From Elusimicrobiota bacterium (lineage in GTDB: Bacteria > Elusimicrobiota > Elusimicrobia > UBA1565), in assembly GCA_043819795.1 (NCBI GenBank), contig JBDREN010000083.1, positions 5,298 to 69,297 of the forward strand: 64,000 nt of DNA, written 5' to 3'. Positions 12,226 to 58,127 of the stretch are shown piece after piece. The notes beneath the pieces are model-generated. The model was not told the DNA's origin and made no database searches. It worked only from the letters and a program-made list of their open reading frames with translations. A program made the translations under genes and the position numbers. Numbering within the stretch: the first letter of the stretch is position 1; every line of letters begins with the position of its first letter.

Positions 12226-12348
12226 GGTCGCCTCCCATGGAGATGGACGCGGCCATCCCCTGCGCGATGCTCGGTCATGGTCGCCTCCCACGGCAGTCGA
12301 CGCGACCATTTCCTGCGCTATGCTCGGTCATAACACTGCCTCCAGGTA
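12222..12348 (-). repeat. two tandem 57-nt copies of SD/start-codon-bearing intergenic repeat (mini-ORFs MTEHSAGNGRVDCRGRRP* and MTEHRAGDGRVHLHGRRP*), with own GGAGG SD, ATGA-coupled to each other and to the giant HK start
   Basis: Reverse complement matches repeat at 50606-50719 and 59231-59397; internal 8-bp inverted repeat ATGGTCGC/GCGACCAT; GGGAGG 6 nt before terminal ATG. Confidence 0.7.
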
Positions 12349-12547: not shown

Positions 12548-12774
12548 TAACAGTCCGTGGCAAAAGTCTTCCGGGGCCTGCGATCGCCTGGATGCGGCCT
12601 GCGCCCGCGTTGCTCCTCGGTCACACCGGGCCCCGGCAGGGGCCCAGTGCCGCACGACCTCAGGAAATGCTTCGGAGCGCTGTCATCCCGTAGAGGGATG
12701 CTACCTCGTCGCGCCTTGGCTCGGCTCGCCCCGGACGATTTCGCCATCCGAAATACTTTTGCCACGGACTGTTA
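12548..12774. mobile_element. MITE-like element: 20-bp perfect terminal inverted repeats TAACAGTCCGTGGCAAAAGT flanking ~187 bp, in intergenic region between two HK genes
   Basis: Left IR 12548-12567, right IR 12755-12774 (exact reverse complement); right IR overlaps stop codon of PAS-HK gene; symmetric spurious ORFs MAKVFR on both strands. Confidence 0.45.
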
Positions 12775-18100: not shown

Positions 18101-20408
18101 CCGCTTCGTGTCCCCCGAGGATTGCCTCAAATCACATCCGCGCGGCTATTGCGATCGGTTCCGGTACAGCAGAGAGGAGCTCATGCGCGCGGTGCGCGGC
18201 TACGGCGCCCTGACCTGGGGCGACCGCCTGATCGAATCGGCCGAGGGCAAGAAGGGCGCGGCCTACTGCGCCACGGCCGGCGCGGGGTGGGGGCTCAAGG
18301 TGTTCGAGAACGTGGGCGAGACGCTCTTCAATCCCGTCATCTGGGCCACTTTCGGCGTGGGCAAGGGAGTGCAGGCCATGACGGCCATGCGCGCCGCGGG
18401 CAACAGCTCGCTCGCGGTCTCCGGCGCGCTCTCCACCGCTCGCGTCACGCACGCGCTCTTGAGCACGACGCTCTACAGCACGTGGGTCGTGGGCGGGGTG
18501 GACAACCTCGGCCAGACCGTGGTCGCGCTCCAGGAAGGCGACAGAGAACAGGCATTGAAGAAGTCGGCCGACCTCGGCACCGATCTCTTCTTCGTCTGGA
18601 TGATGGCCCGCGAGTCTCGCAGCCACAAGCTCCGCCAGAAGGCCCGACAGGCGCTCCTAAAGGAGCAAAGGCTGATCACAAAAGAATACAAGGCCGCTTC
18701 CAAAGCGGTCCGCACTAAGTCCGCGCACGCGACGAACGGCAAAGCCCCGGTCAAGAGCGCCGAGAAGGCGCTCCAGTCCAAGGCCGCGCACGCGACGAAC
18801 GGCAAAGCCCCGGTCAAGAGCGCCGAGAAGGCGCTCCAGTCCAAGGCCGCTCACGCGACGAACGGCAAAGCCCCGGTCAAGAGCGCCGAGAAGGCGATCC
18901 GTTCCAAGGCCGCGCACGCGCAGAAGCCCGCGAAGCCGGCCCCCGAGCCAAAAACGGAGGCCGCACGGGGCAAGACGACGGGCAAGGGCGAGACGCGGGC
19001 CACGAGCGGAGCCCCCAAGAAGCCGGCGCCGAGGACGATCAGGGAGCGCATGCACGAGTGGAAGGCCCGCCTGGTGGAGAACAAGCCCAGGGTCATGGAC
19101 TTTCTGAAGAAGCGTATGCCTAAGCTCAAGTCCTCTCAAGCATCCAAGGCCAAAGCGCTCAAGGCGCGCCAGACCGCAAGGCACACCAAGGCGAACCGGG
19201 CGAAGAAGACGGAATCCAAGTCCGGCAAGAATGCGAAGAGGGGAGGCGAGTCGCCGCTCCGGAATCTCGGCGAACGAGTCGTGGCGGTCGCCAAATCCTT
19301 GATCTCGAAGGGCAAGACGACGGGAAGGAAAGCCCGCAACGCCGGCAAGCTCAAGAAGGCCGCTGTCGCGCCCCGCGCAATCCTGAGTCCCGAGCTCAAC
19401 AGGTTCGCCTCCGAGACGGAGCCCGTACCCGCACCGGACCCGGCGGACTCGGACGCGCGATACACCGCCGATGAGGAGCCTGGAGAAGAGGCCGGCGTGG
19501 ATCCCGGGCAGCGCGGAGAAGACGACGGCCGCGCCGCCCGGGATGCCGCGAAGCCCCGGGCCGAGCCCTTGATCGGAGCCGGCCGCGCGGCGGATTCTCC
19601 CGCCGGCGCCCCGGATTCCGGCGGGGATCAGGCGAGCCCAGGCTCAGGCGGCGATTCCGGAAGCGAAGCCGGCGGCGGCGAGACCGGTTCGGGCACGGGA
19701 AGCGGCGCTCTGGGCGGCGGAAGTCTCGCGAGCGGATCGGGGAGCGGAGGCTCGGGCGGCGGCCGCAAGGGTGCGGGGCGGAATCCCCGCGTGCATGGGC
19801 GGGCGGGACAGAAGTTCGACGGTGGACGGACTACCGTCGCTCGCCTGACCCCGACTTCCCCCCGGCCGTTGCCCTCCCTGCAACCGGAGCGGCCCCGAAT
19901 CATGCCGAGAGCCCCCGAGCCCATAGATCCTTACCGCCAAGCGCACGCTTCGCCGGAGCGCCGGTCCGTCCCGCCAGTCGAGGAGAAACCCGCGCCCCGG
20001 GTGTCCAGGAAGAGTTCGCCGCCCGGGTTCAACGCGACGGGCGGGTCGGGCGGGTCTCTAGCGCCCGGCGGCCCGGAGTTCAAACCGCGGGACCCGTTCC
20101 CCGAGGGCAGGAAGGCGGCTCCGCCGGCGACACCTTCCCCGCCCCGAACCGAGGCGCGCAGCGGCGCTCCCGCCGCCGCGGCCGCCTCTCCCGCCGCGCA
20201 CGACGGCTTCTTCGAGATCCCGCGACACCGCCTCCGCCCGGCCGGCCACCTCCCCAACGGCCGCCTTCCCGAACGGGGGCAAGAGAGCCCCTACCGCGCG
20301 CACGCGCTCAGCCTCCTGCTGGAGCTGGCCGGGCTGGGGGCCGCGATCTACCTTTTTAGGCTCTCAAGATTCCCGTTCCTTATCGGCATCGCGCGCAAAC
20401 GTCTCTGA
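15168..20408 (+). CDS. giant secreted/membrane-anchored protein (1746 aa): signal peptide, large unknown domain, 3x21-aa tandem repeats, lysine/alanine-rich histone-H1-like basic region, G/S-rich and P-rich low-complexity region, C-terminal TM anchor
   Basis: Single long ORF; N-terminal MRRTNGPRWVLLAACALSLQGAARA; C-terminal LSLLLELAGLGAAIYLF; contains two in-frame copies of the 45-nt GC palindromic repeat. Confidence 0.7.
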   Translation: MRRTNGPRWVLLAACALSLQGAARAGTGPRPSPKRLQEEKLPGAIVARLPVPAAFASPGAPASTLSSPAVLLAREIDELFAGLSSETNDGTRALRQPAPEKAPPRGTGSGRLSSRSSPAAGTREPAEVFAALDRRLSDIRARIIDTIDDPEEVAILLARVDRIRGVLAKLRRAGETGQARSLSGAMAGLARALGRGTDDENLSRFETLVDRLMQARSLPPDRLGTIFDNTPEFPDSDVLAPVPAEGFKARAPRARASGAGVSQAALLDIDRYPRPLTGIRVDGGVVPKPRGPGTSAKAEPESEVGRPQRRAVTASQGLERSAVAALSPFAGLSPKGRQDLFRKDRAALRRELLAVGLRALEEGDAELEPYREDLDAADGRLSGMRKALLARLGFDAPPHNDQERSGRFATLTKEAPHLSLYFARRGIYQMRMRQAHGEHAVPPETRFAPWELGIEDGSEKAVVYATAKDGDRTFYGLRREFQDGSSRFAATDGAEGLVVVVSPSDSREIRTRIRFDDQGRPDRTRTSIIDTGTGKRIREEIADIARALTRFVDYDQAGDAVRVLTLDSGTGEQVVEDRRQGRRVATDKDGKVTITPIRGGAQAWQQQGRLDESGRFILDRLVREDGSVVERVSPHVLKISRDGKAQGYEIVVDSIFHGARGPEREAESSRIAREIIAALGYQDKDDRRSRPLSNWLSDTWTKDERTRGVAMTVDPRGRFQVVYSYKDGTKRIERAKYGLSTSYGDGKRELALVTLRPVHTDRQGRARLDPRRYREYLAGGGYNQWHSTFEFKKAGWFSNAKTIEHVSLIRYGRDGSLPRLGPGSGGERDGDSGSGRWTERGREKKDEFVNEVGGTSTFGIVGTAIHEAPVVGDVLQAGGAVGKTLWTGIMAAPPTFIYAVTKDTDYGLAMSGSYAKNPLVNRLVGDQGHLDRMDGKMWEVVLIEARENRRKDLDQMGYTEGNTDPEEHQRLLSQWRGDRFVSPEDCLKSHPRGYCDRFRYSREELMRAVRGYGALTWGDRLIESAEGKKGAAYCATAGAGWGLKVFENVGETLFNPVIWATFGVGKGVQAMTAMRAAGNSSLAVSGALSTARVTHALLSTTLYSTWVVGGVDNLGQTVVALQEGDREQALKKSADLGTDLFFVWMMARESRSHKLRQKARQALLKEQRLITKEYKAASKAVRTKSAHATNGKAPVKSAEKALQSKAAHATNGKAPVKSAEKALQSKAAHATNGKAPVKSAEKAIRSKAAHAQKPAKPAPEPKTEAARGKTTGKGETRATSGAPKKPAPRTIRERMHEWKARLVENKPRVMDFLKKRMPKLKSSQASKAKALKARQTARHTKANRAKKTESKSGKNAKRGGESPLRNLGERVVAVAKSLISKGKTTGRKARNAGKLKKAAVAPRAILSPELNRFASETEPVPAPDPADSDARYTADEEPGEEAGVDPGQRGEDDGRAARDAAKPRAEPLIGAGRAADSPAGAPDSGGDQASPGSGGDSGSEAGGGETGSGTGSGALGGGSLASGSGSGGSGGGRKGAGRNPRVHGRAGQKFDGGRTTVARLTPTSPRPLPSLQPERPRIMPRAPEPIDPYRQAHASPERRSVPPVEEKPAPRVSRKSSPPGFNATGGSGGSLAPGGPEFKPRDPFPEGRKAAPPATPSPPRTEARSGAPAAAAASPAAHDGFFEIPRHRLRPAGHLPNGRLPERGQESPYRAHALSLLLELAGLGAAIYLFRLSRFPFLIGIARKRL
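15899..15946 (+). repeat. 45-nt GC-rich palindromic repeat copy, in-frame inside giant secreted protein (EGFKARAPRARASGAG)
   Basis: Match to consensus GGAAGCCTTCAACGCCTGGGCCCCGCGAGCGAGGGCGAGCGGGAC. Confidence 0.6.
17606..17657 (+). repeat. 45-nt GC-rich palindromic repeat copy, in-frame inside giant secreted protein (GSLPRLGPGSGGERDG), flanked by GGACGGA direct repeats
   Basis: ggacggaagccttccacgcctgggtcccgggagcgggggcgagcgggacgga. Confidence 0.6.
18717..18905 (+). repeat. 3 x 63-bp perfect/near-perfect tandem repeats encoding KAAHATNGKAPVKSAEKALQS
   Basis: Units start 18717, 18780, 18843; partial fourth unit. Confidence 0.8.
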
Positions 20409-20450
20409 TGGTTCCGCAATTTGCTACACTCGGCAGGTAAACGCCCTGCC

Positions 20451-21470
20451 ATGAAGTGCCCGAACTGCCAGTTCGACATCAAAGAGTCCGTAGAGACATG
20501 CCCCTTCTGCAGCTTCGTGCTCCCCGTCGACGAGGAAGCGGAGCAGGACAATAAACCGCCCGATCTCCCATCGAGAACCGAGCAGACGGACCCCGCCGCG
20601 CCCAGCCTGATAGACCTGGACGGCGCGGATGTGGACCCCGAGGTCGGCCGGATCCCCAAGCGTCCGGAGGACGCGGCGGGCGCCGCACCGGAGCCGGTCC
20701 AAGCCCCGGAGCCGAAGCCCTCGGCTATGAAGTCAATCCTCACGTTGCTGGTCGCCGCCGCGATAGGCTTCGGCGGCTATCATCTGGGCCTGTTCGACAA
20801 CCTGCTGTCTTTGGCCGGCATCACGAGTGCGGCCCCGCAGCCCGAGGCGCAGACGGCCCGGCCCGGCCCGGACGCCCCCCGGCCCGCGCCGCCCTCTCCC
20901 GCCGCGCTCCCGACCTCATCGCCGGCCTCGGCGGGCGGCCCCATCGAGGAAGAGCCGCATCAGGGTCCGGCGGGCTCGGCGCTCGTCGACCCGCGCATGG
21001 CGGCGCTGCTGCAGGATCAGACCGCAGCGATCCAAGTCGAGCAGCCGCCTCCCCCCGAGCCCGAAGGAGACTGGGTATTCCTGGGGACGGTCTACGACAT
21101 GATCACGCTGAAGCCGATCCGCGACGCGCAGATGTTGTTCTTAAGCGGCAGCGCGCAGACCGACTACGACACGACCACGGATGCCAAGGGCCGCTACCGA
21201 ATCCGCCTGCCGGCGTCGACGCGCGACGACTACCGTTTGATCATCGACCATCCGGACTATCTGGCCGATTACTTCGACGAGAAGAGCCCCAGCTACCGGA
21301 CGGTCTCCCTCGCCGTCCGCCAACAGCTGCGCTCGGCCAAGCCGAAACTGGAGGCGTGGAAGGGCGTCGTGGGCAAGAACGCCCGCCGAGACATCGTCCT
21401 GTTCCCCGAGATCCCGGACCGGAACCTGCCCCCGGGAGAGTCCCACGGCGATTCCTTCCCGGCGCAATGA
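20451..21470 (+). CDS. zinc-ribbon (CPNC..CPFC) - TM - proline-rich linker - carboxypeptidase-regulatory-like domain protein
   Basis: MKCPNCQFDIKESVETCPFCSF; TM ILTLLVAAAIGFGGYHLGLF; C-terminal GTVYD..KPIRDAQ..TDAKGRYRIRLP. Confidence 0.6.
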   Translation: MKCPNCQFDIKESVETCPFCSFVLPVDEEAEQDNKPPDLPSRTEQTDPAAPSLIDLDGADVDPEVGRIPKRPEDAAGAAPEPVQAPEPKPSAMKSILTLLVAAAIGFGGYHLGLFDNLLSLAGITSAAPQPEAQTARPGPDAPRPAPPSPAALPTSSPASAGGPIEEEPHQGPAGSALVDPRMAALLQDQTAAIQVEQPPPPEPEGDWVFLGTVYDMITLKPIRDAQMLFLSGSAQTDYDTTTDAKGRYRIRLPASTRDDYRLIIDHPDYLADYFDEKSPSYRTVSLAVRQQLRSAKPKLEAWKGVVGKNARRDIVLFPEIPDRNLPPGESHGDSFPAQ

Positions 21471-22234
21471 CCGCGATGAATCTCGCGGGCTGCGCCCTGC
21501 TGATGCCGATCCTGCTGGCCGCCGCGCCCCCAGGAGCCGCCGCTCCCGGAATCCTCCCCGCTGAAAGCGCCGAAGCCGGCCCGGGCGAAGAGACTCTCGC
21601 CACCGGACAGTTCGGCAGCGTGCGCCGGCTCCTGGAACGGACATGGAAGATGGCCCGAGAGTGGTCGGAGGACGCCGCTCTCTACTCCGTCCTCGGGAAA
21701 ACGCCGCGTAATTCGGCGCGTTGGGAGCCTGAACAGTGGCAGTTCATCTTCGGAGACTCCAACGGCAAGGACGGCGCGTTCCTGGTTGTCTATGTCGATG
21801 GGGTCCTGCACGGCCGCGAGGGGATCAAGGGACAGGTCAGACTCACCGAGTTCTTCAAAGACGGGCATTTCGTGAATCGGAGTGCCCGGATCGTGGACTG
21901 GACGACGAACGACTACCGGGACTGCCGCCCGGTTTCGCCGAAATTCGCCGACACGCCGGTCCTCGAGGAGAAGATCCGCGACCTCAAGCTCGTCCCCAAC
22001 GAGCTCAGCCAGTTCCGCGTGGCGCTATTGCACCCCAGCAACAACAACTGCGACGGGCTCGGACACTTGAGCCTGTTCCTGCCCGAAAAACCGATCCCGC
22101 GCAAGCTGCTCAAGAGAAGCCTCTGGATCGTCACCGGCTCGAAGGCGACGACTTTCTTCGACGCGCGCACCGGCAAGAAGCTTTGGCGCCGCGCTCGGGA
22201 CCGATCCGGGAACGACCCGGCTCCAACAAAATAG
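21467..22234 (+). CDS. secreted hypothetical protein (signal peptide MTAMNLAGCALLMPILLAAAPPGAAA), start ATGA-overlaps upstream stop
   Basis: In-frame Met at 21467 overlapping TGA of preceding gene. Confidence 0.6.
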   Translation: MTAMNLAGCALLMPILLAAAPPGAAAPGILPAESAEAGPGEETLATGQFGSVRRLLERTWKMAREWSEDAALYSVLGKTPRNSARWEPEQWQFIFGDSNGKDGAFLVVYVDGVLHGREGIKGQVRLTEFFKDGHFVNRSARIVDWTTNDYRDCRPVSPKFADTPVLEEKIRDLKLVPNELSQFRVALLHPSNNNCDGLGHLSLFLPEKPIPRKLLKRSLWIVTGSKATTFFDARTGKKLWRRARDRSGNDPAPTK

Positions 22235-24305: not shown

Positions 24306-25730
24306 GTGCCGAAGCCGGAACCGACACCGCGGCCGGAGACCCCGCCCATAGCGGGACGGAAGCCTTCAACGCCTGGGCCCCGCGAGCGAGGGCGAGCGGG
24401 ACGGACGCGCCGGCTGCTGGCCTTCGCGTTGCTCGCCGGGGCGTTGGCGCGCTTCGCAACGGCATTCCTCTATTGGGAAGCGCCGCTCAGCCCGGGCGGC
24501 GATGACCTCCAGTACCATGAGCTGGCCTCCGGGATCGCTTCCGGGCGGGGATACCTCCTGCAGGACGAGCCGAGCGCCTACCGCGGCCCTCTCTACCCCC
24601 TCTTTCTGGCGGCGGCCATGCGGGTGACGGCCAGCGACGCGCCCGGCGTCCTCCGGCTCATCCAGGCGATCCTGGGCCTGCTGGCCCTCTGGCTCGTCTA
24701 CCGTCTAGGCGCGGCCATCCATTCCCCCGAGGCGGGCGCCTGGGCGGCGATGCTCATGGCTCTCTATCCGGAGCAAGTCCTGCTCCCGACGTCGCTCTAC
24801 ACCGAATGCTTCTACGCCTTGATCCTGCTCGTCGTGGCGTGGGCGCTCGCATGCTGGCGGCAAGACCCCCGGCCGGCGCGGCTCGCGGGGCTCGGCGCCG
24901 CGATCGGCCTGAGCCTGCTGACGCGTTCGACGCTGGCGGCCTTGCCCGTCCTGCTCGCGGCTTGGCGGCTCGCGGAGCTCCGCGCCGGACGACGGTGGCT
25001 GCGGGAAACCGCCCTTCTCGCCGTGACCGTTCTGCTGCCGCTCACGCCCTGGATCGTCCGCAACTACGCGCGTTTCGGCAGGGTCATCCCCATGGAGACC
25101 GGCGTCGCCGGTCCCGCGTTATGGTACGCCTCCAAGGGCTGGGTCACGGCGCCCTCGGACATGTCCAGCGTGGAGCCGATGAGGACGATGTACCGGAGGC
25201 TTCCGCATACCGAGTGGGACCGCTTCGCGACGCCGCGAGCCCTGCGCAACATGCGGGCCCGCCCGATGGCGTATCTTCTCGGATGCGCGAAGAGGGCTCT
25301 CTACCTTTGGACCACCGCATACACCCCCTACCTGCTCTACTACCACCACCGCCTCTCGGCGTGGATGCAGAGCGGCGGCCGCTGGAGCTGGATCGCCCTG
25401 GGCGACTGGCTCCTTCGGCTCTGCCTGATCCTGCCGGGGGCCTGGGTACTGCTCCGCAGCGCGCGAAAACGCGGCGGAAGCCTTCAGCGCCTGGGCCCCG
25501 CACCGGCCTCCAACGCAAATCCAAAGGGAGGCCGGCACGGCGCCCCTACCGGGGTGGACGCCGCGAGCACGGGCGAGCGGGGGCTTTGGGCGGTGGCCGG
25601 TTTGGTCCTATACTTCCACATCCACGTCTTCGCGACGGTCTTCGTCCGCTACATGGCGCCGGTGACGCCCCTGCTGTGCGTCCTGGCCGGGGCGGGGTGG
25701 GCCGAGTGGCGAGCCTCGCGCCGAGGCTAA
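24306..25730 (+). CDS. GT-C family membrane glycosyltransferase (ArnT/PMT-like, GT83-type); start uncertain (GTG), N- and C-terminal regions each carry a copy of the 45-nt repeat
   Basis: Multiple TM helices, motif LSPGGDDLQYHELASGIASGRGY; repeat copies at 24353-24406 and 25474-25583 in frame. Confidence 0.7.
   Translation: MPKPEPTPRPETPPIAGRKPSTPGPRERGRAGRTRRLLAFALLAGALARFATAFLYWEAPLSPGGDDLQYHELASGIASGRGYLLQDEPSAYRGPLYPLFLAAAMRVTASDAPGVLRLIQAILGLLALWLVYRLGAAIHSPEAGAWAAMLMALYPEQVLLPTSLYTECFYALILLVVAWALACWRQDPRPARLAGLGAAIGLSLLTRSTLAALPVLLAAWRLAELRAGRRWLRETALLAVTVLLPLTPWIVRNYARFGRVIPMETGVAGPALWYASKGWVTAPSDMSSVEPMRTMYRRLPHTEWDRFATPRALRNMRARPMAYLLGCAKRALYLWTTAYTPYLLYYHHRLSAWMQSGGRWSWIALGDWLLRLCLILPGAWVLLRSARKRGGSLQRLGPAPASNANPKGGRHGAPTGVDAASTGERGLWAVAGLVLYFHIHVFATVFVRYMAPVTPLLCVLAGAGWAEWRASRRG
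24353..24406 (+). repeat. 45-nt GC-rich palindromic repeat copy (gggacggaAGCCTTCAACGCCTGGGCCCCGCGAGCGAGGGCGAGCgggacgga), translated as [15 protein letters not shown]
   Basis: Best-conserved exemplar; 8-bp flanking direct repeat GGGACGGA. Confidence 0.65.
25474..25583 (+). repeat. 45-nt repeat copy split by a ~62-nt nested hairpin insertion (CCGGCCTCC..GGAGGCCGG)
   Basis: 5' half ggaagccttcagcgcctgggccccgca and 3' half cgcgagcacgggcgagcggggg separated by insertion. Confidence 0.5.
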
Positions 25731-26563
25731 TAATAGACGCTTCGCGTGTCGGGCTGACGCTCCGATACGCCCCGGCGCCAGAGAAGGACGCCCGCGACCA
25801 GCAGTCCCGCCGACGAAAACCACTGGGAGGGAGAAAGGGCCGGCCACAAGAAAACGCCGCGGTCGTCGCCGCGAAAGAACTCGATAACGAAGCGCATCAA
25901 TGAATACAAGAATATGTAGCCGAGGAACGACGTGCCGTGGGTGAAACGCTTGCGCTCGATGTTCGGCAGCACGTAGTAGAGGAGAAAGAGCAGCAAAGCC
26001 AGCTCCCCCGCAGCCTCGTAGAGCTGGGTCGGATGAAGCGGCACCCCCATCAGCCCTTCGGACACGCTGCAGCCGGGATGGCTGAACGTCACGCCCCACG
26101 GCAGCGCCGTCGGCCGTCCGTGACAGCAACCCTGAGCGAAGCATCCGAGCCTGCCGAAAACATGCCCCATGGGAAGCGCGACGATCAGATAGTCGGCCAG
26201 GGGTAGGTACCGCCGCTTCTCCCGGCGTCCGCGGTTGAACACCCGCTGGAACGCCCAGCCGGCCAGCATCGCCCCGCCCAAGGAGGTCCAGAACACCCAG
26301 CCGATCTTCCAGCTCGACAGCATCTCCCGGGGCTCGGCGAGAAAGTCGCGCCATTCGACGACGAGGAACCCGATCTTCCCCCCCGCCAACCCCCCGAGAA
26401 CGAGGCTGTAGATCAGGGCCCAGAACTGGCCGGGGGTCTCTCCCGGAGCCTTTCCCCGAGGCCGCTCGACCCAGAGCCAGAGGATCCCCAGAGCGGCGCC
26501 GAAGACGACGAGCAGGCCGTAGAGCTCGAGGCGAAAAGGACCGGCGGTGAAGAAAGGCAGCAT
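25727..26563 (-). CDS. lgt: prolipoprotein diacylglyceryl transferase
   Basis: Motifs GRLGCFAQGCCHG, HPTQLYE; convergent 4-nt overlap with GT-C gene. Confidence 0.85.
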   Translation of the reverse strand: MLPFFTAGPFRLELYGLLVVFGAALGILWLWVERPRGKAPGETPGQFWALIYSLVLGGLAGGKIGFLVVEWRDFLAEPREMLSSWKIGWVFWTSLGGAMLAGWAFQRVFNRGRREKRRYLPLADYLIVALPMGHVFGRLGCFAQGCCHGRPTALPWGVTFSHPGCSVSEGLMGVPLHPTQLYEAAGELALLLFLLYYVLPNIERKRFTHGTSFLGYIFLYSLMRFVIEFFRGDDRGVFLWPALSPSQWFSSAGLLVAGVLLWRRGVSERQPDTRSVYY

Positions 26564-26576
26564 AAAACGAGACGCG

Positions 26577-27116
26577 TCAGTCCATCATGCGCAGGACCCC
26601 CAGCTTGGGCTGGGGAATCAGAGACTTGCTGAGGGAGCTGACCCCCTGCTGCATGAACATGGCGACGATGAGGATCACTGCCCCCATGATGAGCGCGACG
26701 CCCGTATTGCCCCTGCCGATCTCGACCTCCTCGTCGAGGTCGCGGGTCAGCACCTGGAAGAGCTTCAGCGCGATCTGGACGCACCCGACCGAGAGCAGGA
26801 AGCCCAAGACCAGGTGGCCGAGAGCGTAAGCGGCCAGCGCGAGCACTCCGTGCTCGGCCCCTCCGCGCCCCATGACGCCGACGGTGATGATGCTGACGAC
26901 GGGATAGATCGATTGGCGCATGATCAGCGCGGCGCCGGCCATCAGCGAGGCCATCAGCACCGAGACGGCGACGTTCCCCTTCCGGATCTCGGCCTCGGCG
27001 TCGAAGGCCGTGTTGAACCGGACGAAACTCTTGTAGCTCCAGAATACGATGAAGACCGACAGGACGATCGAGAGACCGAATTCCGCCAGACTAATCAAAA
27101 GACGCGTCCAGAACAT
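26577..27116 (-). CDS. DUF350-type membrane protein (two repeats ..AEIRKGNVAVSVL.. / ..VEIGRGNTGVALI..)
   Basis: Start MFWTRLL with GGGAGG SD; supplied ORF start is a GC-rich artefact extension. Confidence 0.7.
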   Translation of the reverse strand: MFWTRLLISLAEFGLSIVLSVFIVFWSYKSFVRFNTAFDAEAEIRKGNVAVSVLMASLMAGAALIMRQSIYPVVSIITVGVMGRGGAEHGVLALAAYALGHLVLGFLLSVGCVQIALKLFQVLTRDLDEEVEIGRGNTGVALIMGAVILIVAMFMQQGVSSLSKSLIPQPKLGVLRMMD

Positions 27117-27130
27117 CGAACCTCCCGTGT

Positions 27131-28222
27131 CTAAAGGTCGAGCGGCTGGATCCCGAACGAGTTGCCCGCCTCGAGATAGGCCCTCGTCGTGTCCCCGACC
27201 CGGCCCGGCGGCAGCCAAGCCGGACCCGCCGATTCGATCATCACGAAGGGGAACCCCTCGTGCTCGATGAATACGTCTCCGCTGCGCGGCACGCGCTGGA
27301 CGGCCATCAGGTAATGCCCGGGGATGGACAGTCCCACCATGCGCAGATTGGGCCAGCTCATGAGGATGCTCGCCAGGACCGCGGTCTTCGTGTCGCAGTC
27401 GCCCTGCCCGAGGGCCAGGGCCTTGGGCGGCGGCAGCATGCCCGCGATGACGCGGGAGCCTTCGCTCCTCCCGGGGACCTCGTAGCGCATGGCGGTCTGC
27501 ACCATGGCGGACGCCGCCCCCACGAGGTCCTCGGCGTCGTACCCGCGGCGACGCGAGAGGTCCGCGAAGCTCAAGGCCACGGGCCGCACCCGTTTCCAGT
27601 TGCGCCGCACCATGGCCGGGATATCCACCTCGAGGATGCCCTTTCCCTTCAAGCGGAAACCGGAGCGATCGAAGACCTCCAGCCGCCGCCGGCGGTACTC
27701 GCGGGCGAGGTCGGCGATCGTCCGATCCAGCTCCTGCTCGATCCGCGCGTTCTGGGCCTTGAGCCTCTCCATCTTGCGGGCGAGCTCCGCCCGGGTCTTG
27801 GCCGTCACCTTTCCGCTGACGTATCTCCCCTTGGCGGCGGCGATCGCGCTCTCCTGCGACCTTTTGTACCAAGCGTCGAGATCATCGAGCTCGTCCTGGC
27901 TGTAGCCGAACTCGCGGACCGAATCGGAGACCGTCCCGGAGTCCAGGCTCGCCTTGACCGACAGGACGTCCCCGTTGAAGTTCTTGAAACCGAACTCGAG
28001 GGAATAGCCATCCGGACCCTGGAGGATCCGGCGGTACGGGGGCGTCCTTTGGCGCGCGTCGCCGGAACCCATCGGCTCGAAGGGCCCGAAGCGGCGGGGC
28101 TCGAGCCGCTCGGCCGCGTGCGCTCCTCCCTGGTGGATCACCCAGGTAAAGCCCGCCAGATAGAGATATACCGACAGGGCCGAGAGGGCCCACCAACGCC
28201 CGCCGCGGGCTAGGCCGAGCAT
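27131..28222 (-). CDS. membrane-anchored protein with possible transglutaminase-like Cys-His fold (GQGDCDTKTAVLASIL...GLSIPGHY)
   Basis: N-terminal TM, coiled-coil segment, C-terminal C...H motif; weak assignment. Confidence 0.5.
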   Translation of the reverse strand: MLGLARGGRWWALSALSVYLYLAGFTWVIHQGGAHAAERLEPRRFGPFEPMGSGDARQRTPPYRRILQGPDGYSLEFGFKNFNGDVLSVKASLDSGTVSDSVREFGYSQDELDDLDAWYKRSQESAIAAAKGRYVSGKVTAKTRAELARKMERLKAQNARIEQELDRTIADLAREYRRRRLEVFDRSGFRLKGKGILEVDIPAMVRRNWKRVRPVALSFADLSRRRGYDAEDLVGAASAMVQTAMRYEVPGRSEGSRVIAGMLPPPKALALGQGDCDTKTAVLASILMSWPNLRMVGLSIPGHYLMAVQRVPRSGDVFIEHEGFPFVMIESAGPAWLPPGRVGDTTRAYLEAGNSFGIQPLDL

Positions 28223-28432: not shown

Positions 28433-29623
28433 TCAGTAGATCCATCCGGGAGCGGTGCGTCGCTTCTCCGGGACCCGGCGTCGGGGACGCCGCGCAGGCT
28501 CGAGGGTGCGAGGGACCTCCTCCTCGATATCCTCGAGCTCCTCCCTCTCGGGCATGCTCTCGATGAAGGGACGCCGCCGGGACTCCCGCTGCCGCGCCGA
28601 GACCCAACCGAACCGGTAGGTGAATCCGATGCGGTGGGTGTCGCTGAAGGTCTCCGTCATCCCCCAGGCGTAGTCGATGCCGATACCCCGCCAGGAAGCC
28701 CCGAATCCTATGGTCAGCCCCACCACGTCGCGGTTGAGCCGGTAGCCGAGCCGGAGCGCGTGCTGCTGGAGCACGGAGTACTCCATGCCGAGATTCACGT
28801 ACCACTGCCGCTCGAAGGTGAGGTACTCCCCGTCTGCGGCGAGCAGCAAGGCCCTGCTCTCTCCCAGCGTCACCGCGCCCGGGAGGGCCGGCCTGTAGGC
28901 GAACCCGCCGCGCACGGTCAGCGGCAGGGGATCGCCCTCCTCGATGAACCGCATATCGCTGCCCAGGTTCAGGACGGAGGCCCCCGCGGTGACGCCCACG
29001 TCGGGAACGTCGAGGAAATAGCCGATGTCGCTGGCGAAAGCGGTGGCCGAGTACGTCTGCGCCAAAGTCGACCGGACGAGCTTGCCGCTGACACCCAGGA
29101 AATGGTGCAGGCCGACGGGGCCGCGCTTGGTGTCGATATCGAAGCGCCCGAGACGCTCGGAGTAGCCCACGGAGAGGACCAGATCCCCCCCGGCGCTGAG
29201 GGACTCCGATCCCAGGAAAGAGCCGTCGGAAGCCGTCCGGTTGACCTCGATGGAGCCGTGCTGCGCGAAGAGCAGGCTCGCTCCCAGCGAGGCGTATCCG
29301 GAGCCGATGATCCCGGGCAGCGCAAGCGGAGTGCCGGCCGAGATATGCTCGATGGTCTGGTCCTCGATGCCCTTGAGGTACATGAAGCTGACCTCGCTGT
29401 GGTCGAGGTTGCTCAAGCCCGCGGGGTTGTAGAAGAGGGCCGACGCGTCCGAGGCGACGCCCGTGAACGCCCCGCCCATTCCCACCGCCCGCGCGCCCAC
29501 CGGCAGCTGCAGCACCGGCGCGGCCGTCACCCCGGGGTTCTCCGCTGCGAAGCACGGCGCCCCCGCGGCGGCTCCCGCCGCCCAGGCCGCCGCGAAAAGA
29601 ACCGTCGGCCGCATTCTCAGCAT
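28433..29623 (-). CDS. PorV/PorQ-like (UPF0164-type) outer-membrane beta-barrel protein
   Basis: Signal peptide; hallmark N-terminal motif GARAVGMGGAFTGVASDASALFYNPAGL; beta-barrel periodicity. Confidence 0.6.
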   Translation of the reverse strand: MLRMRPTVLFAAAWAAGAAAGAPCFAAENPGVTAAPVLQLPVGARAVGMGGAFTGVASDASALFYNPAGLSNLDHSEVSFMYLKGIEDQTIEHISAGTPLALPGIIGSGYASLGASLLFAQHGSIEVNRTASDGSFLGSESLSAGGDLVLSVGYSERLGRFDIDTKRGPVGLHHFLGVSGKLVRSTLAQTYSATAFASDIGYFLDVPDVGVTAGASVLNLGSDMRFIEEGDPLPLTVRGGFAYRPALPGAVTLGESRALLLAADGEYLTFERQWYVNLGMEYSVLQQHALRLGYRLNRDVVGLTIGFGASWRGIGIDYAWGMTETFSDTHRIGFTYRFGWVSARQRESRRRPFIESMPEREELEDIEEEVPRTLEPARRPRRRVPEKRRTAPGWIY

Positions 29624-29636
29624 CGCGTTCAGGCGT

Positions 29637-32600
29637 CTACTTGACGACGATCACCTTCTTCGTCTCCCGGATACCCGGAGCCTCCAGGTTCAGCAGATAG
29701 ATGCCGCTCGCCACGCGGCTGCCCAGCCGGTTCGCCCCGGACCAGTCGACCGAGCCCTTCCCGGCCGGCTTGAACTCGTCGATGAGCGTCAGCACGTGCC
29801 GTCCCGTGCGCGTGAACAGGCGCAGGCGCACGTGGCCCGCGCTCTGGATCTCGTAGCGGATGGTCGTGAACTCGCCCCGACTCGGATTGAAGACGTTGTT
29901 GAACGGCGTCAGCGCCGTCCTGTCGGCCGTCAGGTTGATCGCCGGCGAGAACCCGAGAGACTGCACGTGTCCGAGCGGGTTCCCCCCGAAGACCTCGAGG
30001 TGGACCGTCCCGACGGCCCGGAAGCGCTCGTTGAAGCCCGAAGCGAGCGCCAACGTCCCGCTGACCCTCCCGAGCCCGTTGCTCGAGGAGACGAACGTCA
30101 AGAAGGGAGAGGCTCCGTCGGTCGCCGTCCCCGGCAACACCCGGAGCGCATGGTCGCGCAGTCGCGCATGATGGAACATGTAGTTCTGCGACGTCACGAA
30201 GGTGGCCACGCGGACCTCGAAGCTTATGACGTCGTTGTCGAACGACGCCGCGACGATGCTCGACGCGACCGGGCCGGCCCGGCTGTACTCGGCCTCCAGC
30301 CCGTAGAACTCGGTGGAGTTGTTGTTCGTGACCAGAGCGTACTCGTCCCCCTCCGGCGCCGAGACCACGAGGAAGTACTGATCGGAGCGGGGGCTGACGT
30401 ACTCGAGCACGACCTTCCGGCTGCTCGTCCGGCAGCCCGTGTCGGGACAATAGCCCCCGAGCGTCGGATTGATATCGATCACGGGCCCGGCCTTCCGCAC
30501 GATCTCGTAGCGCGAGTCGATGAGCGACATCGAGTAGGCGCGGTAGGTCCCCGGAAAGCCCGGGTCCTGGGGGAGCGTCAGCGTGAGCCGGATGAGCCCC
30601 TCGGCGGCTCCGAAGGCGTAATAATCCAGATCGGCCGCCGGATAGATGCGGGCGCTGATGACCGGCGCGGTCGTGATGTCCGTCGCGGACTGGATCCCGT
30701 TGTTCGGCTCGTAGACGTCCTCGTCCGGCGGGTTGAGCACGATGTTGTGCAGCGCGAAGGCGTTCACGATGTCGCCGCCGCGGAGGTTGTCCCCCCCGCA
30801 GGCCGCCACGAGGGCCGCGGCGCGCTTATCGACCTCCAGCATCGCCTCCAGGAAATCCTCAAAACTGTCCGGAAAGAAGAACAGCGCCTGGAACACGAGC
30901 CCGTCGGCGCAGGCCTGGCCGTTGGCCGCGCCCAGCTGGGTCATGAGCTGTCCGCGCAGCCCCCACACAGCCTGGCTGATCATGCGGCTGTCGTCGTGGA
31001 TCGCGCCGGTCCAGTGGGCCGGGAAGATCACACAGGCCGTCTCAGACGGGCAGTCCAGCTCGCGCAGGGCTCCCTCGCTCTGGAACCCGACGTTGGCGTA
31101 CGTTCCTATGGCGCTGTTCCCCAGCGAGCTCGCGGCGAAGTAGTCGGCGAGGGCCTCCGAGATCGCTCCGAACTGGCCGAAGTTGATGATCGGATAGATC
31201 TGGTCCACGACGAAGTGGACGTACTCGTGTCGCACCACGCTCGCGTCCAGCGCCAGGCTGTTGCCGACGTCCCCGAACATGAGGTTCTCGTGCAGCGGGT
31301 CGTAGAAAGCGTTGGAAAGCCCCGGCCCCGCTCGAGCCATGACGGGCACCGGCTTGTCGATATCGGCGCCATCCGCGCTGTTCGGCCCGTCGGCGAAATA
31401 GTCGTGCATCCTATTGATGTGGTAGAAGAGGTTTATCTCGTCTTCGGTCCCGTCGAAAGTGCGGGCCGTGGTCCACGTGAAGGTCGCCGTCGCGTTGTCG
31501 CTGGAGCCGGGGCTGTTCGTCAGATAAAGGTAGCTGGAGTGGCTGATGTCGAAGCCGTTGCGCGTGCCGCTCTCGTTGGACTTCAGCCGCAGGCGCAGCT
31601 GCGTGCCCGCCACGGCCGCGCCGTTGAACGGGCCCCGATTGCCCAGGTAGCCGGCCACCGGGTAGCCGTCGGCGTCCAGGATGGCGACTTGGTCGTCGTC
31701 GGTGATTTCGAGATCACCCGCGAAAAACTCGATGCCTCCCACGTCGAAAGAGCTGAATACCGGCAGGAGCTTCACGGCTCCGGGGGCATCCTGCGGCGTC
31801 GCGTTGATCGTCGAGATGAGGACGGCGTCGTTCGAGTAGGGGTGCGGCGAGGACAGCGGCGTGGAGAAGGTCTTCCATTTCCCCCCGCCGTTGTCGTAGT
31901 GGGCGTTGGGGACGTTGAAGTTGGCCACATGGACGTACGGTCCCTGAAGGGAGGTGAAGATCTTCCCCGCGGTCTGGCTGCAGAAGAACCCGTTCGCGTC
32001 GGTCAGGGCGAAGGTGCTCGAATCGACCACGTAGACGCGCTGGTTCTTGAACGGCCGGACGGACAACGGCGAGGTGCCCGCGTCTATGTCGTAAACGTTC
32101 CCGGTCACGGTCCCCGAGCTCGCGCACGCGGCCTGGAACCGGAGGTCGTTGTAGCGCAAGAGGATCTCGCCCGAGCCCGCGTCCACGTAGTAGATCCAGC
32201 CGCCGCCGCGGCCCGAAACGCGGAACCTCCACGCCAGACGCACGGCATCGGAGCCGCGCAGAGGGAAGAACACCAGACGCCCTCCCCGAGGCCGCGGCGC
32301 CGCGCCGCCCAGGTCCGCCGCGGCGCGCAGCGCGGCCGCGGCCTCGTCGAGGCGAGGCACGGGGGATTCCCGGACGCCCGGGCGGTAGCTCGACTGGAGG
32401 CTCAGGATGGCGCCGGCCTCGTCGAGGTGCACCTTGACCCGCGAGAACTCGACGGGGACTCCCTCGACCACCTGCTCGAACAGAAGGTGATGGATCCCGC
32501 CCGCGGTGCGCCCCAGCTCCAGGCGAAGCTCGTCGGCGCGCAGACCCAGCTCCGGGCCGTATTCCCGCAGGAAGGCCACCGCCACCTCGCGCGCCTCCAC

Positions 32601-32927
32601 TCGGGCCCGCGGCGTCCCCCCGGGACCGACGCCCTTCGGACCGAAGCGCAGGCTGTGACGCCCCCGGCGGGCGCCGTTGAAGCGCCGTACCGCGGCGCGC
32701 GCCCGCCGAGACCTCCCCACCGCGCGCGTGCGGGGCGGCTCGGGCCGGTCCAGGCCGAAGCGTCCGGCGTCGTCGCGATGATGCGGCTCCGGACGCACGG
32801 CGAACGCGGCGCGGGCGCCGCCCGCCATGAGCAGCGCGGCCAACGCCCCGGAAGTCATCAACACACGGGCCCCGCGAGCCGGGGCTCGCGGGGAGACCGC
32901 CGGAGGCCTGGATACCCGGCGCATCAC
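29637..32927 (-). CDS. secreted zinc metalloprotease (fungalysin/thermolysin-like, HEYVHFV) with C-terminal T9SS-type sorting domain (ends KKVIVVK)
   Basis: HExxH motif VRHEYVHFV; propeptide-like N-terminus; C-terminal ~80 aa matches Por secretion CTD pattern (FNPSRGEFTTIRYEI...GIYLLNLEAPG...KKVIVVK). Alternative start 32858. Confidence 0.75.
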   Translation of the reverse strand: MMRRVSRPPAVSPRAPARGARVLMTSGALAALLMAGGARAAFAVRPEPHHRDDAGRFGLDRPEPPRTRAVGRSRRARAAVRRFNGARRGRHSLRFGPKGVGPGGTPRARVEAREVAVAFLREYGPELGLRADELRLELGRTAGGIHHLLFEQVVEGVPVEFSRVKVHLDEAGAILSLQSSYRPGVRESPVPRLDEAAAALRAAADLGGAAPRPRGGRLVFFPLRGSDAVRLAWRFRVSGRGGGWIYYVDAGSGEILLRYNDLRFQAACASSGTVTGNVYDIDAGTSPLSVRPFKNQRVYVVDSSTFALTDANGFFCSQTAGKIFTSLQGPYVHVANFNVPNAHYDNGGGKWKTFSTPLSSPHPYSNDAVLISTINATPQDAPGAVKLLPVFSSFDVGGIEFFAGDLEITDDDQVAILDADGYPVAGYLGNRGPFNGAAVAGTQLRLRLKSNESGTRNGFDISHSSYLYLTNSPGSSDNATATFTWTTARTFDGTEDEINLFYHINRMHDYFADGPNSADGADIDKPVPVMARAGPGLSNAFYDPLHENLMFGDVGNSLALDASVVRHEYVHFVVDQIYPIINFGQFGAISEALADYFAASSLGNSAIGTYANVGFQSEGALRELDCPSETACVIFPAHWTGAIHDDSRMISQAVWGLRGQLMTQLGAANGQACADGLVFQALFFFPDSFEDFLEAMLEVDKRAAALVAACGGDNLRGGDIVNAFALHNIVLNPPDEDVYEPNNGIQSATDITTAPVISARIYPAADLDYYAFGAAEGLIRLTLTLPQDPGFPGTYRAYSMSLIDSRYEIVRKAGPVIDINPTLGGYCPDTGCRTSSRKVVLEYVSPRSDQYFLVVSAPEGDEYALVTNNNSTEFYGLEAEYSRAGPVASSIVAASFDNDVISFEVRVATFVTSQNYMFHHARLRDHALRVLPGTATDGASPFLTFVSSSNGLGRVSGTLALASGFNERFRAVGTVHLEVFGGNPLGHVQSLGFSPAINLTADRTALTPFNNVFNPSRGEFTTIRYEIQSAGHVRLRLFTRTGRHVLTLIDEFKPAGKGSVDWSGANRLGSRVASGIYLLNLEAPGIRETKKVIVVK

Positions 32928-34039
32928 TTCTTCCTGGACCCCCCCGCCCGCTGCAGGAGGTTCACAAGGGCCGCGGCCGCCCGCACCCGCACGCGCATCT
33001 CGCGGTCATCGAGCGCGCTCTCGAGCTCCTCGATCGCCGCGTCCCCCCCGACCGTCTCGAGCACCTCGACGGCGAGCACGCGGGTGTCGACGTCATGCTG
33101 ATAGAGGGCACGCCGGGCGGCGGAAAGGTCCACCTTCTCGCCCGCGCGCGCCAGGCCGGCGATCGCGAGAAGCTCGATGAAGACGTTCGCGGAGGTCCGC
33201 CGCGCCTTCTCCAGATGCTGCACGGCGCCTCCGGCCCCGAGACGCCCCATCGCCGCCACGGCCTTCGAACGCACGAGCTCGTTCTGATCCTCGGCGCCGG
33301 CGGACAGCTCCTCGATGCCCAGGACGCTGCCGGACTCGCCCAGCGCCTCCATCGCGGCCGCGCGGACCTGGTGGCTCGGGTCCTTGGCCAGCGCCTTGAG
33401 ATACCGGACCGCCTCCGGCGCCGCCGAGACCGACGCGACCTCTCCTAGAGCGCGCGCGGCCTTCACCCGGATCTGGGTATTGTCGCTGCCGACGGCATCC
33501 ATGATACTGCCCATCTCCCGGTCGCTTCCGAGCCTCGCCAGCGCGACCGCGGCCGCGTCCCGCACCGCTCCGTCCCGGTCGGAAAGCGCGCCCTCCAAGA
33601 CCTTCACCGACGACGGCTCGGCCATGCGCCCCAGCGCCCGCGAGGCGACGACGCGGACCTTGTTGCGGGCGATGTAGCGCAACTCCTGAACCGCGCTGAG
33701 GGACGCGCCCTCCTCGGGGGGGTCCGGAGCCGCCTCGACGATCTTCTCCACCTCGACCACGCCGCTCTTGTCCCCCAGCTGATACAGGCTCCCCGCGGCC
33801 GCGATCCGCACGTTGGCGTTCCGGTCCTTCAAGGCGCGCTTGAGGACCCGCGCGGAGGCCCGGTTGCCGATCGGCCCCCATTGCTCGGCGGCCAGCACCC
33901 GGATATCGGAATCATCGTTCAGCATCGCCGAATAGAGGATCTCGAGGGCCTTCGCCCCGAGGGCGGCCTTCGGGTCCTTCCCGCCCGCGGGCCCGGCCAG
34001 CGGCGCGCGGGGAAGAGCCCCGACAAGGACGCCCACCAT
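32924..34039 (-). CDS. HEAT/PBS-lyase-type repeat protein with N-terminal hydrophobic segment; start uncertain (alternative ATG 34186)
   Basis: Repeated ..VR..AA.ALG.. HEAT-like units; stop abuts protease start. Confidence 0.55.
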   Translation of the reverse strand: MVGVLVGALPRAPLAGPAGGKDPKAALGAKALEILYSAMLNDDSDIRVLAAEQWGPIGNRASARVLKRALKDRNANVRIAAAGSLYQLGDKSGVVEVEKIVEAAPDPPEEGASLSAVQELRYIARNKVRVVASRALGRMAEPSSVKVLEGALSDRDGAVRDAAAVALARLGSDREMGSIMDAVGSDNTQIRVKAARALGEVASVSAAPEAVRYLKALAKDPSHQVRAAAMEALGESGSVLGIEELSAGAEDQNELVRSKAVAAMGRLGAGGAVQHLEKARRTSANVFIELLAIAGLARAGEKVDLSAARRALYQHDVDTRVLAVEVLETVGGDAAIEELESALDDREMRVRVRAAAALVNLLQRAGGSRKK

Positions 34040-34196
34040 AAAGGTTACGACGACGCATTTAGGAAAAGATTGCGCGGATGTTGCCGGAAGATGAACAACC
34101 GGGGCCCGGCGGCCGGCCTCCCGGACCGGGGCCTCGCGGCGCGGGAGCTTTTTGGCGGGGCGCCGATGCGGGATAGGGGTGAGCATGGCCAAGAAG

Positions 34197-34268: not shown

Positions 34269-34364
34269 CAGCCCTAAGTTTAAGAGGCCTCCGTCATACT
34301 GTCAATACCAAGAAAAACCCGCGGCCGCGGCGAGCCGGCGAACTTCCCCGCGCCGTCGATAATT

Positions 34365-44092: not shown

Positions 44093-44692
44093 ATGAGGAA
44101 GATCCGCGAATTCAACCTCCGTCTCCCGTTCAAGGAGATCCGGCGCCGCGCCCGGCAGGCGGCCGACCTGAACGCCATGGGCCTCGATGACCCGAAGCTG
44201 CAGCTGCTCATCGAGGTCGTCCAGCGCCGCCTGCGGCCGGCCGTGATCTTCGCCTCCTTCGGCCCCGAATCCCGCGAGACGGCCGCCCTCGCCCCGATAC
44301 CCGGTCTCGCCCACACGCTGGGGCTGGCGACCCTCGGCCCCGACATCGCGCCCCTGATCGCCGAAACACGGACCGAGAACGAGCAGCGCGGCGGCCTCCT
44401 CGAGCTGGTCGCCGCGGTCGCCCTGGAGCGCGCCGTCCAGTTCGTCACCGGGCTGCTCCGAGACGAGGTGGAGTCCGAGCGGTGCGAGCTCAGCCCGATC
44501 CAGCATCTCGACGAGGCGGAGGCCGTCTCGGCCGTGCTCGAACGCCTCGGGGGCGGGAAGATCGGCCTCAAGCTCGAGGCCGGACGCCTCTCCCCCGAGC
44601 ATTCGACGGCATTCTGCCTCAGCTGGATCGCCAGGAAGGGCCGCCGGAGAAAGTCCAAGACCAGGGCTTCGTCGGGAAGCCGCGACAGATAG
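44093..44692 (+). CDS. hypothetical protein (possibly methionine-synthase-activation-domain-like); C-terminal basic tail may be spurious
   Basis: AGGAGG SD; no firm family recognised. Confidence 0.45.
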   Translation: MRKIREFNLRLPFKEIRRRARQAADLNAMGLDDPKLQLLIEVVQRRLRPAVIFASFGPESRETAALAPIPGLAHTLGLATLGPDIAPLIAETRTENEQRGGLLELVAAVALERAVQFVTGLLRDEVESERCELSPIQHLDEAEAVSAVLERLGGGKIGLKLEAGRLSPEHSTAFCLSWIARKGRRRKSKTRASSGSRDR

Positions 44693-46642: not shown

Positions 46643-46709
46643 TTCATCAGGTTTCTCCGTACGCGCGCCCGTACGCGAGCGTAGCGGCGGGGAATCTCGG
46701 CAGAAATCG

Positions 46710-55169: not shown

Positions 55170-55197
55170 CGCCCCGCATTCGAACGGTCCGCCCGCG

Positions 55198-58094: not shown

Positions 58095-58127
58095 TGATTC
58101 CTATTTGATATAATTTTGCTGGAAAAC

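Follow-up and report, generated by a model that had tools for sequence, protein, structure and literature searches.

Proteins that end in the C-terminal domain (CTD) of type IX secretion systems (T9SS) co-occur with the T9SS core genes, and both are regarded as restricted to Bacteroidota (PMC10202324). The type A form of this domain folds as an Ig-like sandwich of seven beta-strands, and cognate PorV-like barrels have been described: PorQ for PorZ, PorV for PorU and PorP/SprF for type B cargo (PMC10202324). The CTD is kept, and stays bound to a barrel, in two T9SS proteins, PorZ and PorU (PMC10202324). The PorP/SprF barrels are encoded beside their type B cargo, as in SprB-SprF, and the CTD of such cargo is thought to remain uncleaved and has been proposed to serve as an anchor (PMC10202324). 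Here we describe three adjacent genes that encode a HEAT-repeat protein, a metalloprotease ending in a CTD-like domain and a beta-barrel of the PorV/PorQ family, in a stretch of 64,000 nucleotides (the window) from an Elusimicrobiota metagenome-assembled genome (MAG; contig JBDREN010000083.1).

The three open reading frames (ORFs) lie on the minus strand and span 28433-34192, where the original prediction had placed them. That prediction also took the genome to be a non-Bacteroidota one, which was borne out: NCBI taxonomy places Elusimicrobiota directly under Pseudomonadati and not in the Fibrobacteres-Chlorobi-Bacteroidetes (FCB) group. The GC content of the window is 68%, and a GC content of 0.88-0.90 at third codon positions in all three ORFs marks the coding frame. 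NCBI lists an entry 100% identical to each of the three proteins, all from a single 72,290-bp contig of an Elusimicrobiota bacterium MAG. The intergenic gaps measure 65 nt and 13-22 nt, in orthologous trios the genes touch or overlap by 4 nt, and we infer that the trio is transcribed as one unit.

The arrangement resembles the PorZ-PorQ and PorU-PorV pairs of Porphyromonas gingivalis, where a large surface protein keeps a type-A-like C-terminal Ig domain held by a 14-strand barrel of the PorV family. Here, however, the partner is an M4 metalloprotease, neither the C25-type sortase PorU nor PorZ, the carrier of anionic lipopolysaccharide (A-LPS); the models NF033707 and NF052228 match only its CTD, and the barrel fails both equivalog models. 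The host is a member of Elusimicrobiota, no T9SS core was detected in the window or in the flanking ORFs tested, and a HEAT gene and a barrel tail are added. A second likeness is to SprB-SprF of Flavobacterium johnsoniae, a system with a type B CTD in which cargo and cognate barrel genes are clustered, one barrel per cargo. Unlike in that system, the CTD here belongs to the type A/FlgD-Ig kind rather than to type B (TIGR04131/PF13585), the model that covers the barrel is the PorV/PorQ one, and the organism lies outside Bacteroidota. With confidence somewhat above even, we read the trio as a cognate cargo-barrel cassette for surface anchoring, a reading that fits better than ordinary cargo of a general T9SS.

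Conservation of the trio and pairing of CTD and barrel genes

Loci were taken from long-contig neighbourhoods and from a barrel-family scan of 185,579 species genomes, and flanks of +/-10 kb were read around the homologues. This yielded 33 orthologous loci from about 30 Elusimicrobiota species. The ORF of a CTD-ending protease stops 0-50 nt before the barrel in 32 of them, the sole exception (L038) being a contig without upstream DNA. The HEAT gene is directly upstream of the protease gene in 22 of the 25 loci with enough sequence, confirming the earlier view of the HEAT protein as a co-operonic partner of the pair; in one locus (L031) an ABC transporter stands in its place. Genes flanking the trio differ between loci, a 363-aa protein, a DUF350 protein and lgt being often nearby. 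Orthologues of the protease (~95, 35-60% identity), of the barrel (>100, 44-62% identity) and of the HEAT protein (~60, 33-60% identity) were found in Elusimicrobia only. The HEAT-protease-barrel trio is a conserved, Elusimicrobiota-restricted module.

The genome scan also detected distant barrels of the PorV family (26-34% identity) in other Elusimicrobia and in ten further groups, namely Ignavibacteria, Cytophagia, Zixibacteria, Gemmatimonadetes, Calditrichaeota, Marinimicrobia, Krumholzibacteria, Eisenbacteria, FCPU426 and Riflebacteria. With an iterated CTD hidden Markov model (HMM), a CTD-ending ORF was found directly before each of the seven paralogous barrels of Elusimicrobia, and several of these CTD proteins pass TIGR04183 at 27.8-33.1 bits. 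The paralogous pairs have neither a HEAT neighbour nor a barrel tail, and their upstream partners are unrelated to one another, including an S8 subtilase, BNR-repeat proteins, an NHL/OmpL47-type propeller protein and others. Since the partners of the barrels differ in activity, the common factor is the CTD and not the enzyme.

The 659 kb of Elusimicrobia DNA collected around barrels holds 39 CTD ORFs, every one of them barrel-adjacent. The sample from FCB-type and other phyla, collected in the same manner over 720 kb, differs: 39 of its 54 barrels have a CTD partner, and another 31 CTD ORFs stand unpaired, a contrast that is suggestive and does not amount to a census. The strict adjacency in Elusimicrobia argues for cognate anchoring pairs rather than for many cargoes sharing one PorV shuttle. 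It bears on the alternative that the protease is ordinary T9SS cargo, in which case a full T9SS encoded elsewhere in the genome would export it through an SprA-type translocon and hand it over to this PorV, and PorU would cleave its CTD. One-to-one pairing, with no unpaired CTD gene in the 659 kb, is unlike the pattern of many cargoes to one PorV, and the proteins tested upstream of the barrels do not match PorU outside the CTD.

The PorU question was addressed with dedicated models. Upstream ORFs of ~1100-1200 aa, tested in four loci (L039, L056, L057 and L083), were rejected as PorU, because outside the CTD neither NF033707 nor NF052228 matches them. The window protease and the FCB-type upstream ORFs score 14-49 bits with the PorU model NF033707, over the CTD only, against a cutoff of 420, and next to all barrels examined the matches of this model cover CTD regions only. 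For the same reason we rejected the trio as a mimic of a porU-porV operon. The PorU-sized CTD proteins upstream of barrels may be a very divergent PorU or another class of enzyme.

Several of the sampled loci show further arrangements. A CTD ORF of ~1040-1260 aa ends at the start of the barrel in L039, L048, L049, L056, L057, L062 and L083, which come from Ignavibacteria, Calditrichaeota and other MAGs. On the FCPU426 contig L037 (1-10953) there are three tandem pairs of a CTD protein and a PorV-like barrel, and Elusimicrobia RBG_16_66_12 (L032, 5214-10972) carries two divergent pairs, one with an S8 subtilase and one with a BNR-repeat protein. Cargo-barrel cassettes can therefore be arrayed.

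Predicted structures of the barrel, the protease and the HEAT protein

The barrel gene (28433..29614, minus strand) encodes 393 aa from the NCBI start, the ORF extending to 29623 (396 aa). The product passes the PorV/PorQ family model NF033709 with 132.5 bits against a cutoff of 90, residues 33-338 aligning to model positions 2-326 of 326, and NCBI already names the identical protein 'PorV/PorQ family protein'. It fails the equivalog models for PorV (NF033710, 42 bits vs 250), PorQ (NF033711, 62 vs 220) and PorV2 (33 vs 325). An AlphaFold2 (AF2) model built on 61 homologues reached a pLDDT of 86.7 and a pTM of 0.80. Its leading Foldseek matches are the PorV chains 8gl6_F (E 2.4e-15, TMq 0.60) and 6h3i_F, both from T9SS translocon complexes, followed by FadL (E 4e-9, TMq 0.43), TodX, OmpG and the Bacteroidota BamG. 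The barrel is thus a genuine member of the PorV/PorQ family, as originally proposed, structurally closest to PorV, yet by the equivalog models neither PorV nor PorQ. At its N-terminus a signal peptide precedes a GARAVGMGG...NPAGL motif. The original prediction had read the string GARAVGMGGAFTGVASDASALFYNPAGL as a PorV/PorQ signature; the string is present, but the signature is general to the FadL superfamily and also aligns to Pfam Toluene_X, so that the family assignment rests on the full-length HMM match and the fold and not on the N-terminal motif. For the protease as ordinary T9SS cargo, a barrel of this family that is structurally closest to SprA-bound PorV is a point in favour, and scores far below the PorV and PorQ equivalog cutoffs are a point against.

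The FadL relationship allows another explanation, in which a FadL-like barrel would import hydrophobic peptides or other products released by the enzyme and the CTD would be an Ig-like spacer. The barrel belongs to the same superfamily as FadL, TodX and the spirochaetal UPF0164 proteins (Pfam UPF0164 30.6 bits vs 21.4), its NPA-type hatch motif can be aligned to Toluene_X, the structures that come next after PorV are FadL and TodX, and operons of an enzyme plus a transporter are common. We regard this explanation as very improbable. PorV is clearly the better structural match; the barrel partners, which comprise M4 and S8 proteases, BNR proteins and an NHL propeller, share only the CTD; and the protease is better conserved in its CTD than in any other domain, which one would not expect of a spacer. 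Unlike FadL, TodX and UPF0164, the barrel is strictly coupled to a CTD protein and carries a family-specific tail, RRPFIES...PGWIY.

This tail (28436..28606, minus strand; …RRPFIESMPERE…APGWIY) is a charged stretch of ~55 residues after the terminal beta-strand ...FTYRFG. It carries the motif RRPFIES.PER and ends in PGW(I/V/L)Y; W394 and Y396 do not vary, and pairwise identity over the last six residues is 88%. All barrel orthologues have the tail; most paralogous barrels end at the canonical beta-signal phenylalanine. The tail is presumably periplasmic. Some FadL-like proteins of Treponema pallidum also carry periplasmic C-terminal extensions.

The protease gene (29637..32858, minus strand) encodes a pre-pro M4-type zinc metalloprotease of 1073 aa with a C-terminal domain of the sorting or anchor type. 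The ORF extends to 32927 (1096 aa); the real start is M24 (32858), as judged by orthologue alignment and the NCBI call of 1073 aa, and the residues upstream of M24 are gaps in most orthologues. The signal peptide MTSGALAALLMAGGARAAFA (32790..32858), after which the next residue is V, is followed by an FTP/PepSY propeptide (residues ~27-240, 32139..32780) that scores 33.5 bits with Pfam FTP against 21 and aligns to the thermolysin propeptide. The further domain layout was taken from an AF2 model (pLDDT 88.9) and Foldseek. Residues ~327-445 (31524..31880) are predicted to form a CUB-like beta-sandwich within the catalytic N-lobe, which matches the C1s CUB domain 9x1h (TMt 0.45) and appears in the profile alignment as an insertion relative to thermolysin. 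A PPC/collagen-binding-like domain (residues ~733-857, 30288..30662) matches the collagen-binding domains of ColG/ColH with TMt 0.77-0.79, and the AF2 model then places an Ig-like beta-sandwich at residues ~864-970 (29949..30269), ahead of the CTD.

The string HEYVHF, from which the original prediction had recognised a metalloprotease, is present in the ORF translation. The zinc site comprises HEYVH and a third ligand, E, in GAISEALADY (31155..31229), and H544, E545, H548 and E568 are invariant in 60 orthologues. A profile of these 60 sequences matched pro-thermolysin 5a3y at E 4e-19 in two pieces, the propeptide and the catalytic domain, and other M4 enzymes at 1e-9 to 1e-7. On the single protein Pfam Peptidase_M4 stays below its gathering threshold (18.4 bits vs 22.4); several orthologues carry a precomputed PF01447 match. 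The helical catalytic lobe resembles aureolysin, thermolysin, vibriolysin and LasB (TMt 0.60-0.64). From profile and model, the protease is predicted to be an M4 (thermolysin-fold) zinc enzyme with an intact active site. The top Foldseek match of the whole protein, PorU 6za2 (E 5.6e-12), was rejected, because it aligns strings of beta-sandwich domains at a TM of 0.08 and a root-mean-square deviation of 30 Å. The enzyme shares the FTP/PepSY propeptide, the HExxH...ExxxD site, the M4 fold and a PPC-like domain with secreted M4 proteases that have a PPC domain (vibriolysin MCP-02, LasB, aureolysin). It differs from them in the CUB-like insertion of ~120 residues in the N-lobe, an extra Ig domain, the T9SS-like CTD and a dedicated barrel and HEAT protein.

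The CTD (29640..29915, minus strand) is a domain of 92 aa and seven beta-strands, of the FlgD-Ig/T9SS type A kind, and is our candidate for a barrel-binding tag. It was originally described as a textbook Por-secretion domain. The string ...GIYLLNLEAPG...KKVIVVK is indeed present, and the domain is homologous to T9SS type A CTDs; 'textbook' overstates the case. TIGR04183, suggested as a check, scores 20.0 bits on the full protease, below its cutoff of 23, and 25.8 bits on the isolated 100-aa domain, above it. Pfam PF18962 (Por_Secre_tail) gave no match on the protease at E<=0.1, and FlgD_ig scored 17.2 bits vs 27. Among orthologues, 26 of 27 CTDs match TIGR04183 (best E 4.7e-8), 26 of 27 the PorZ CTD region, 16 of 27 that of PorU and all 27 the FlgD Ig domain. 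The terminal position, the strand count and the terminal motifs NNVFNP, GIYLL and KKVIVVK are CTD-like: TIGR04183 aligns to the last residue of the protease, the AF2 model places seven strands within residues 982-1071 of 1073, and Foldseek matched the domain to PorZ 5m11 over 129 columns (E 1.5e-4). It is also the most conserved domain of the protease, with a mean pairwise identity of 56% compared to 54% for the catalytic lobe and 49% overall. Profiles and models together put the domain in the FlgD-Ig/T9SS-CTD superfamily, apparently on the border of both.

A zinc metalloprotease fused to a type A CTD is also found in the T9SS metallopeptidases of Bacteroidota (NF038113 M36, NF052323 M6-like). 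Only the CTD aligns to these models, however, at 13-25 bits against cutoffs of 600-885, and those proteins have no private barrel gene. That the isolated domain passes TIGR04183, and that some orthologues bear the NCBI name 'T9SS type A sorting domain-containing protein', would fit ordinary T9SS cargo. An exhaustive search with the CTD profile brought up mainly multi-copy FlgD-Ig repeat proteins and did not tell sorting CTDs apart from internal repeats.

The HEAT-repeat protein (32924..34039, minus strand; 371 aa by the NCBI start, the ORF extending to 34192) scores 112.4 bits with Pfam HEAT_2 (PF13646) against a cutoff of 27.7 and 79.3 with HEAT (PF02985) against 23.5. Its N-terminus is hydrophobic, the four aligned orthologues all have signal-peptide-like N-termini, and the protein is probably exported to the periplasm. 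A dependence between the HEAT protein and the barrel tail was looked for in the loci that differ in gene content; the tail is kept in the three loci without an adjacent HEAT gene, so that any link between the two is putative.

T9SS core genes and the surroundings of the trio

The trio had originally been called a T9SS cargo operon, a description that found no support in that form. Models for SprA, PorK/L/M/N (GldK/L/M/N), PorU and PorZ matched none of the ~45 genes scanned in the window. None of the large ORFs tested in related Elusimicrobia loci matched a T9SS core model either, a scan of flanks only that leaves genome-wide absence unproven. The barrel fails the equivalog models, and in the 659 kb of Elusimicrobia DNA sampled, CTDs are found only next to barrels (39/39). 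Among individual candidates, the large ORFs of L022, L024 and L004 have no Pfam match and that of L025 is an ABC transporter. A protein of 1746 aa in the window (15168-20408, plus strand) was considered as an SprA-like translocon and rejected, being of low complexity, largely non-barrel and without family matches.

Literature searches found no paper that ties Elusimicrobia to T9SS, PorV or cassettes of this kind, and published accounts confine T9SS to Bacteroidota or the FCB superphylum, outside which Elusimicrobiota lie. Together with the failure of core models in the 64-kb window and in the large ORFs of related loci, this makes ordinary T9SS cargo rather unlikely in our judgement; the scan covered the window and flanks, so that core genes may lie elsewhere.

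The remainder of the window encodes lipopolysaccharide (LPS)-core biosynthesis, SecDF/YajC, Tgt, RuvABC, YebC, SpoIID, Lgt and two-component sensors, a gene content consistent with a diderm. This setting bears on an explanation in which the protease is a periplasmic enzyme of envelope maintenance that takes part, together with HEAT protein and barrel tail, in the processing or quality control of envelope proteins, its role being reflected in the neighbourhood of lgt, LPS genes and SpoIID. The module is single-copy, widely conserved and set amid housekeeping and envelope genes, a periplasmic location is probable for both the HEAT protein and the tail of the barrel, and no outer-membrane translocon was identified among the genes scanned. 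We nevertheless hold this explanation to be improbable: M4 enzymes with an FTP/PepSY propeptide and a PPC domain are typically secreted, the homologous CTDs of Bacteroidota are surface-sorting tags (PMC10202324), and the genes around the trio lack conservation from locus to locus.

Upstream of the HEAT gene lies a sigma-70-like promoter candidate, TTGACA-17-TAAACT (34277..34305, minus strand), a consensus match only (10/12). The consensus scan found 3 sites vs 0.5 expected in shuffles, and a second site precedes the next gene downstream of the trio. On that side a conserved 363-aa protein without a family match (27131-28222, minus strand) has an N-terminal transmembrane helix, a coiled coil and a C-terminal block GQGDCDTKTA...PGHYLMAV...IESAGPAW. 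It is followed by a DUF350 protein (26577-27872, minus strand), whose listed ORF of 431 aa is over-extended, orthologues having 176-194 aa, and then by lgt (25727-26563, minus strand). L001 and L003 have this set downstream of the trio as well, with other genes inserted in between, so that the association is looser.

The 1746-aa protein has a signal peptide, is A/R/G-rich, and matches no Pfam or NCBIfam family; 'KAAHATNGKAPVKSAEKALQS' occurs in it three times in tandem (around aa 1184-1245), and a hydrophobic segment lies at its C-terminus. The ORFs 14029-14919, 20421-21470 and 21356-22234 (all plus strand) flank it and may form one unit with it; they have good coding signal and no family match, and one of them, zinc-ribbon-like at its N-terminus, also has a sub-threshold CarboxypepD_reg-like domain. 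A 2560-aa ORF (4627-12309, minus strand) looks like a giant sensor kinase of unknown input. Its C-terminal HATPase_c is its sole recognisable part, ~2400 residues being without a family match; it lies where the AT skew is strongly negative (-0.28 to -0.35), between a response regulator and a PAS/HisKA kinase (flanking ORFs 3375-4625 and 12772-13839, both minus strand). At 45338-62689 (plus strand) there is a long co-directional cluster for LPS core and 3-deoxy-D-manno-octulosonic acid (Kdo), with waaA, several heptosyltransferases, GT4 glycosyltransferases, lpxK, gmhB, hldE, kdsB, pyrG and kdsA. The same region holds a TPR protein (56037-58094) and the unannotated ORFs 44093-44692 and 55198-56037.

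A proposed surface-anchoring cassette and its meaning

All three proteins of the trio have signal-peptide-like N-termini. In the anchoring cassette that we favour, all three would leave the cytoplasm by Sec, and the barrel would insert in the outer membrane as a PorV-like beta-barrel of the FadL type. The pro-protease would be held at the surface, its C-terminal Ig-like domain staying bound to the loops of its own barrel. Once the FTP/PepSY propeptide is lost, the enzyme, equipped with CUB-like and PPC-like binding domains, would act on extracellular proteins or proteins of the surface, degrading or processing them. The HEAT protein may assist from the periplasm, as a chaperone or adaptor of the pro-enzyme or by engaging the presumably periplasmic PGWIY tail of the barrel.

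Several observations weigh against the anchoring cassette. Contact between the CTD and the barrel is suggested by adjacency and homology, and the cassette leaves unexplained the route by which the protease would cross the outer membrane. The loci were collected via barrels, which makes the adjacency counts conditional on the presence of a barrel, and the CTD HMM was trained on barrel-adjacent CTDs, so that divergent unpaired CTDs could escape it. Among PDB sequences, FlgD is the nearest to the CTD profile (E 1e-4), with PorZ (0.058) and the RgpB CTD (0.3) further off. The core fold of the domain is generic, ~205,000 representative proteins matching the profile, many of them with 5-15 internal tandem copies. 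Finally, the HEAT gene is absent beside the pair in 3 of 25 loci, in which the tail motif of the barrel is intact.

A wider hypothesis, which we put forward tentatively as a possibility short of even odds, is that Elusimicrobiota lack the SprA translocon and the PorKLMN motor, and that their cassettes of a CTD protein and a private barrel, of which the trio is the most conserved, form an autonomous pathway of surface display or secretion that predates T9SS or evolved beside it. Recognition between CTD and PorV might then be older and modular, and later co-opted by the T9SS of Bacteroidota, with the HEAT protein and the PGWIY tail as a new periplasmic coupling element.

The components themselves are already annotated in part, NCBI labelling the barrel PorV/PorQ and some protease orthologues 'T9SS type A sorting domain-containing' or 'FlgD Ig-like'. 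What appears to be undescribed is the HEAT-protease-barrel module, the tail of the barrel and, for a phylum outside FCB, the strict pairing of cargo with barrel. Reviews of T9SS limit CTD-tagged proteins and their machinery to Bacteroidota or the FCB superphylum, and here both partners of that recognition step, a type-A-like CTD and a PorV-family barrel, occur outside FCB as tightly conserved one-to-one gene pairs, with no translocon or motor gene in the DNA scanned. If a full T9SS is present in these genomes, the finding shrinks to an extension of the range of phyla. If the pairing reflects binding, the trio would be a minimal and compact model of CTD-barrel recognition that pairs a single cargo with a single barrel and adds a HEAT accessory and a tail on the barrel, both without counterpart in the known systems. 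It would also offer a handle on the evolution of the attachment step of T9SS, and a simple rule that predicts surface-exposed enzymes in uncultured Elusimicrobia and neighbouring candidate phyla.

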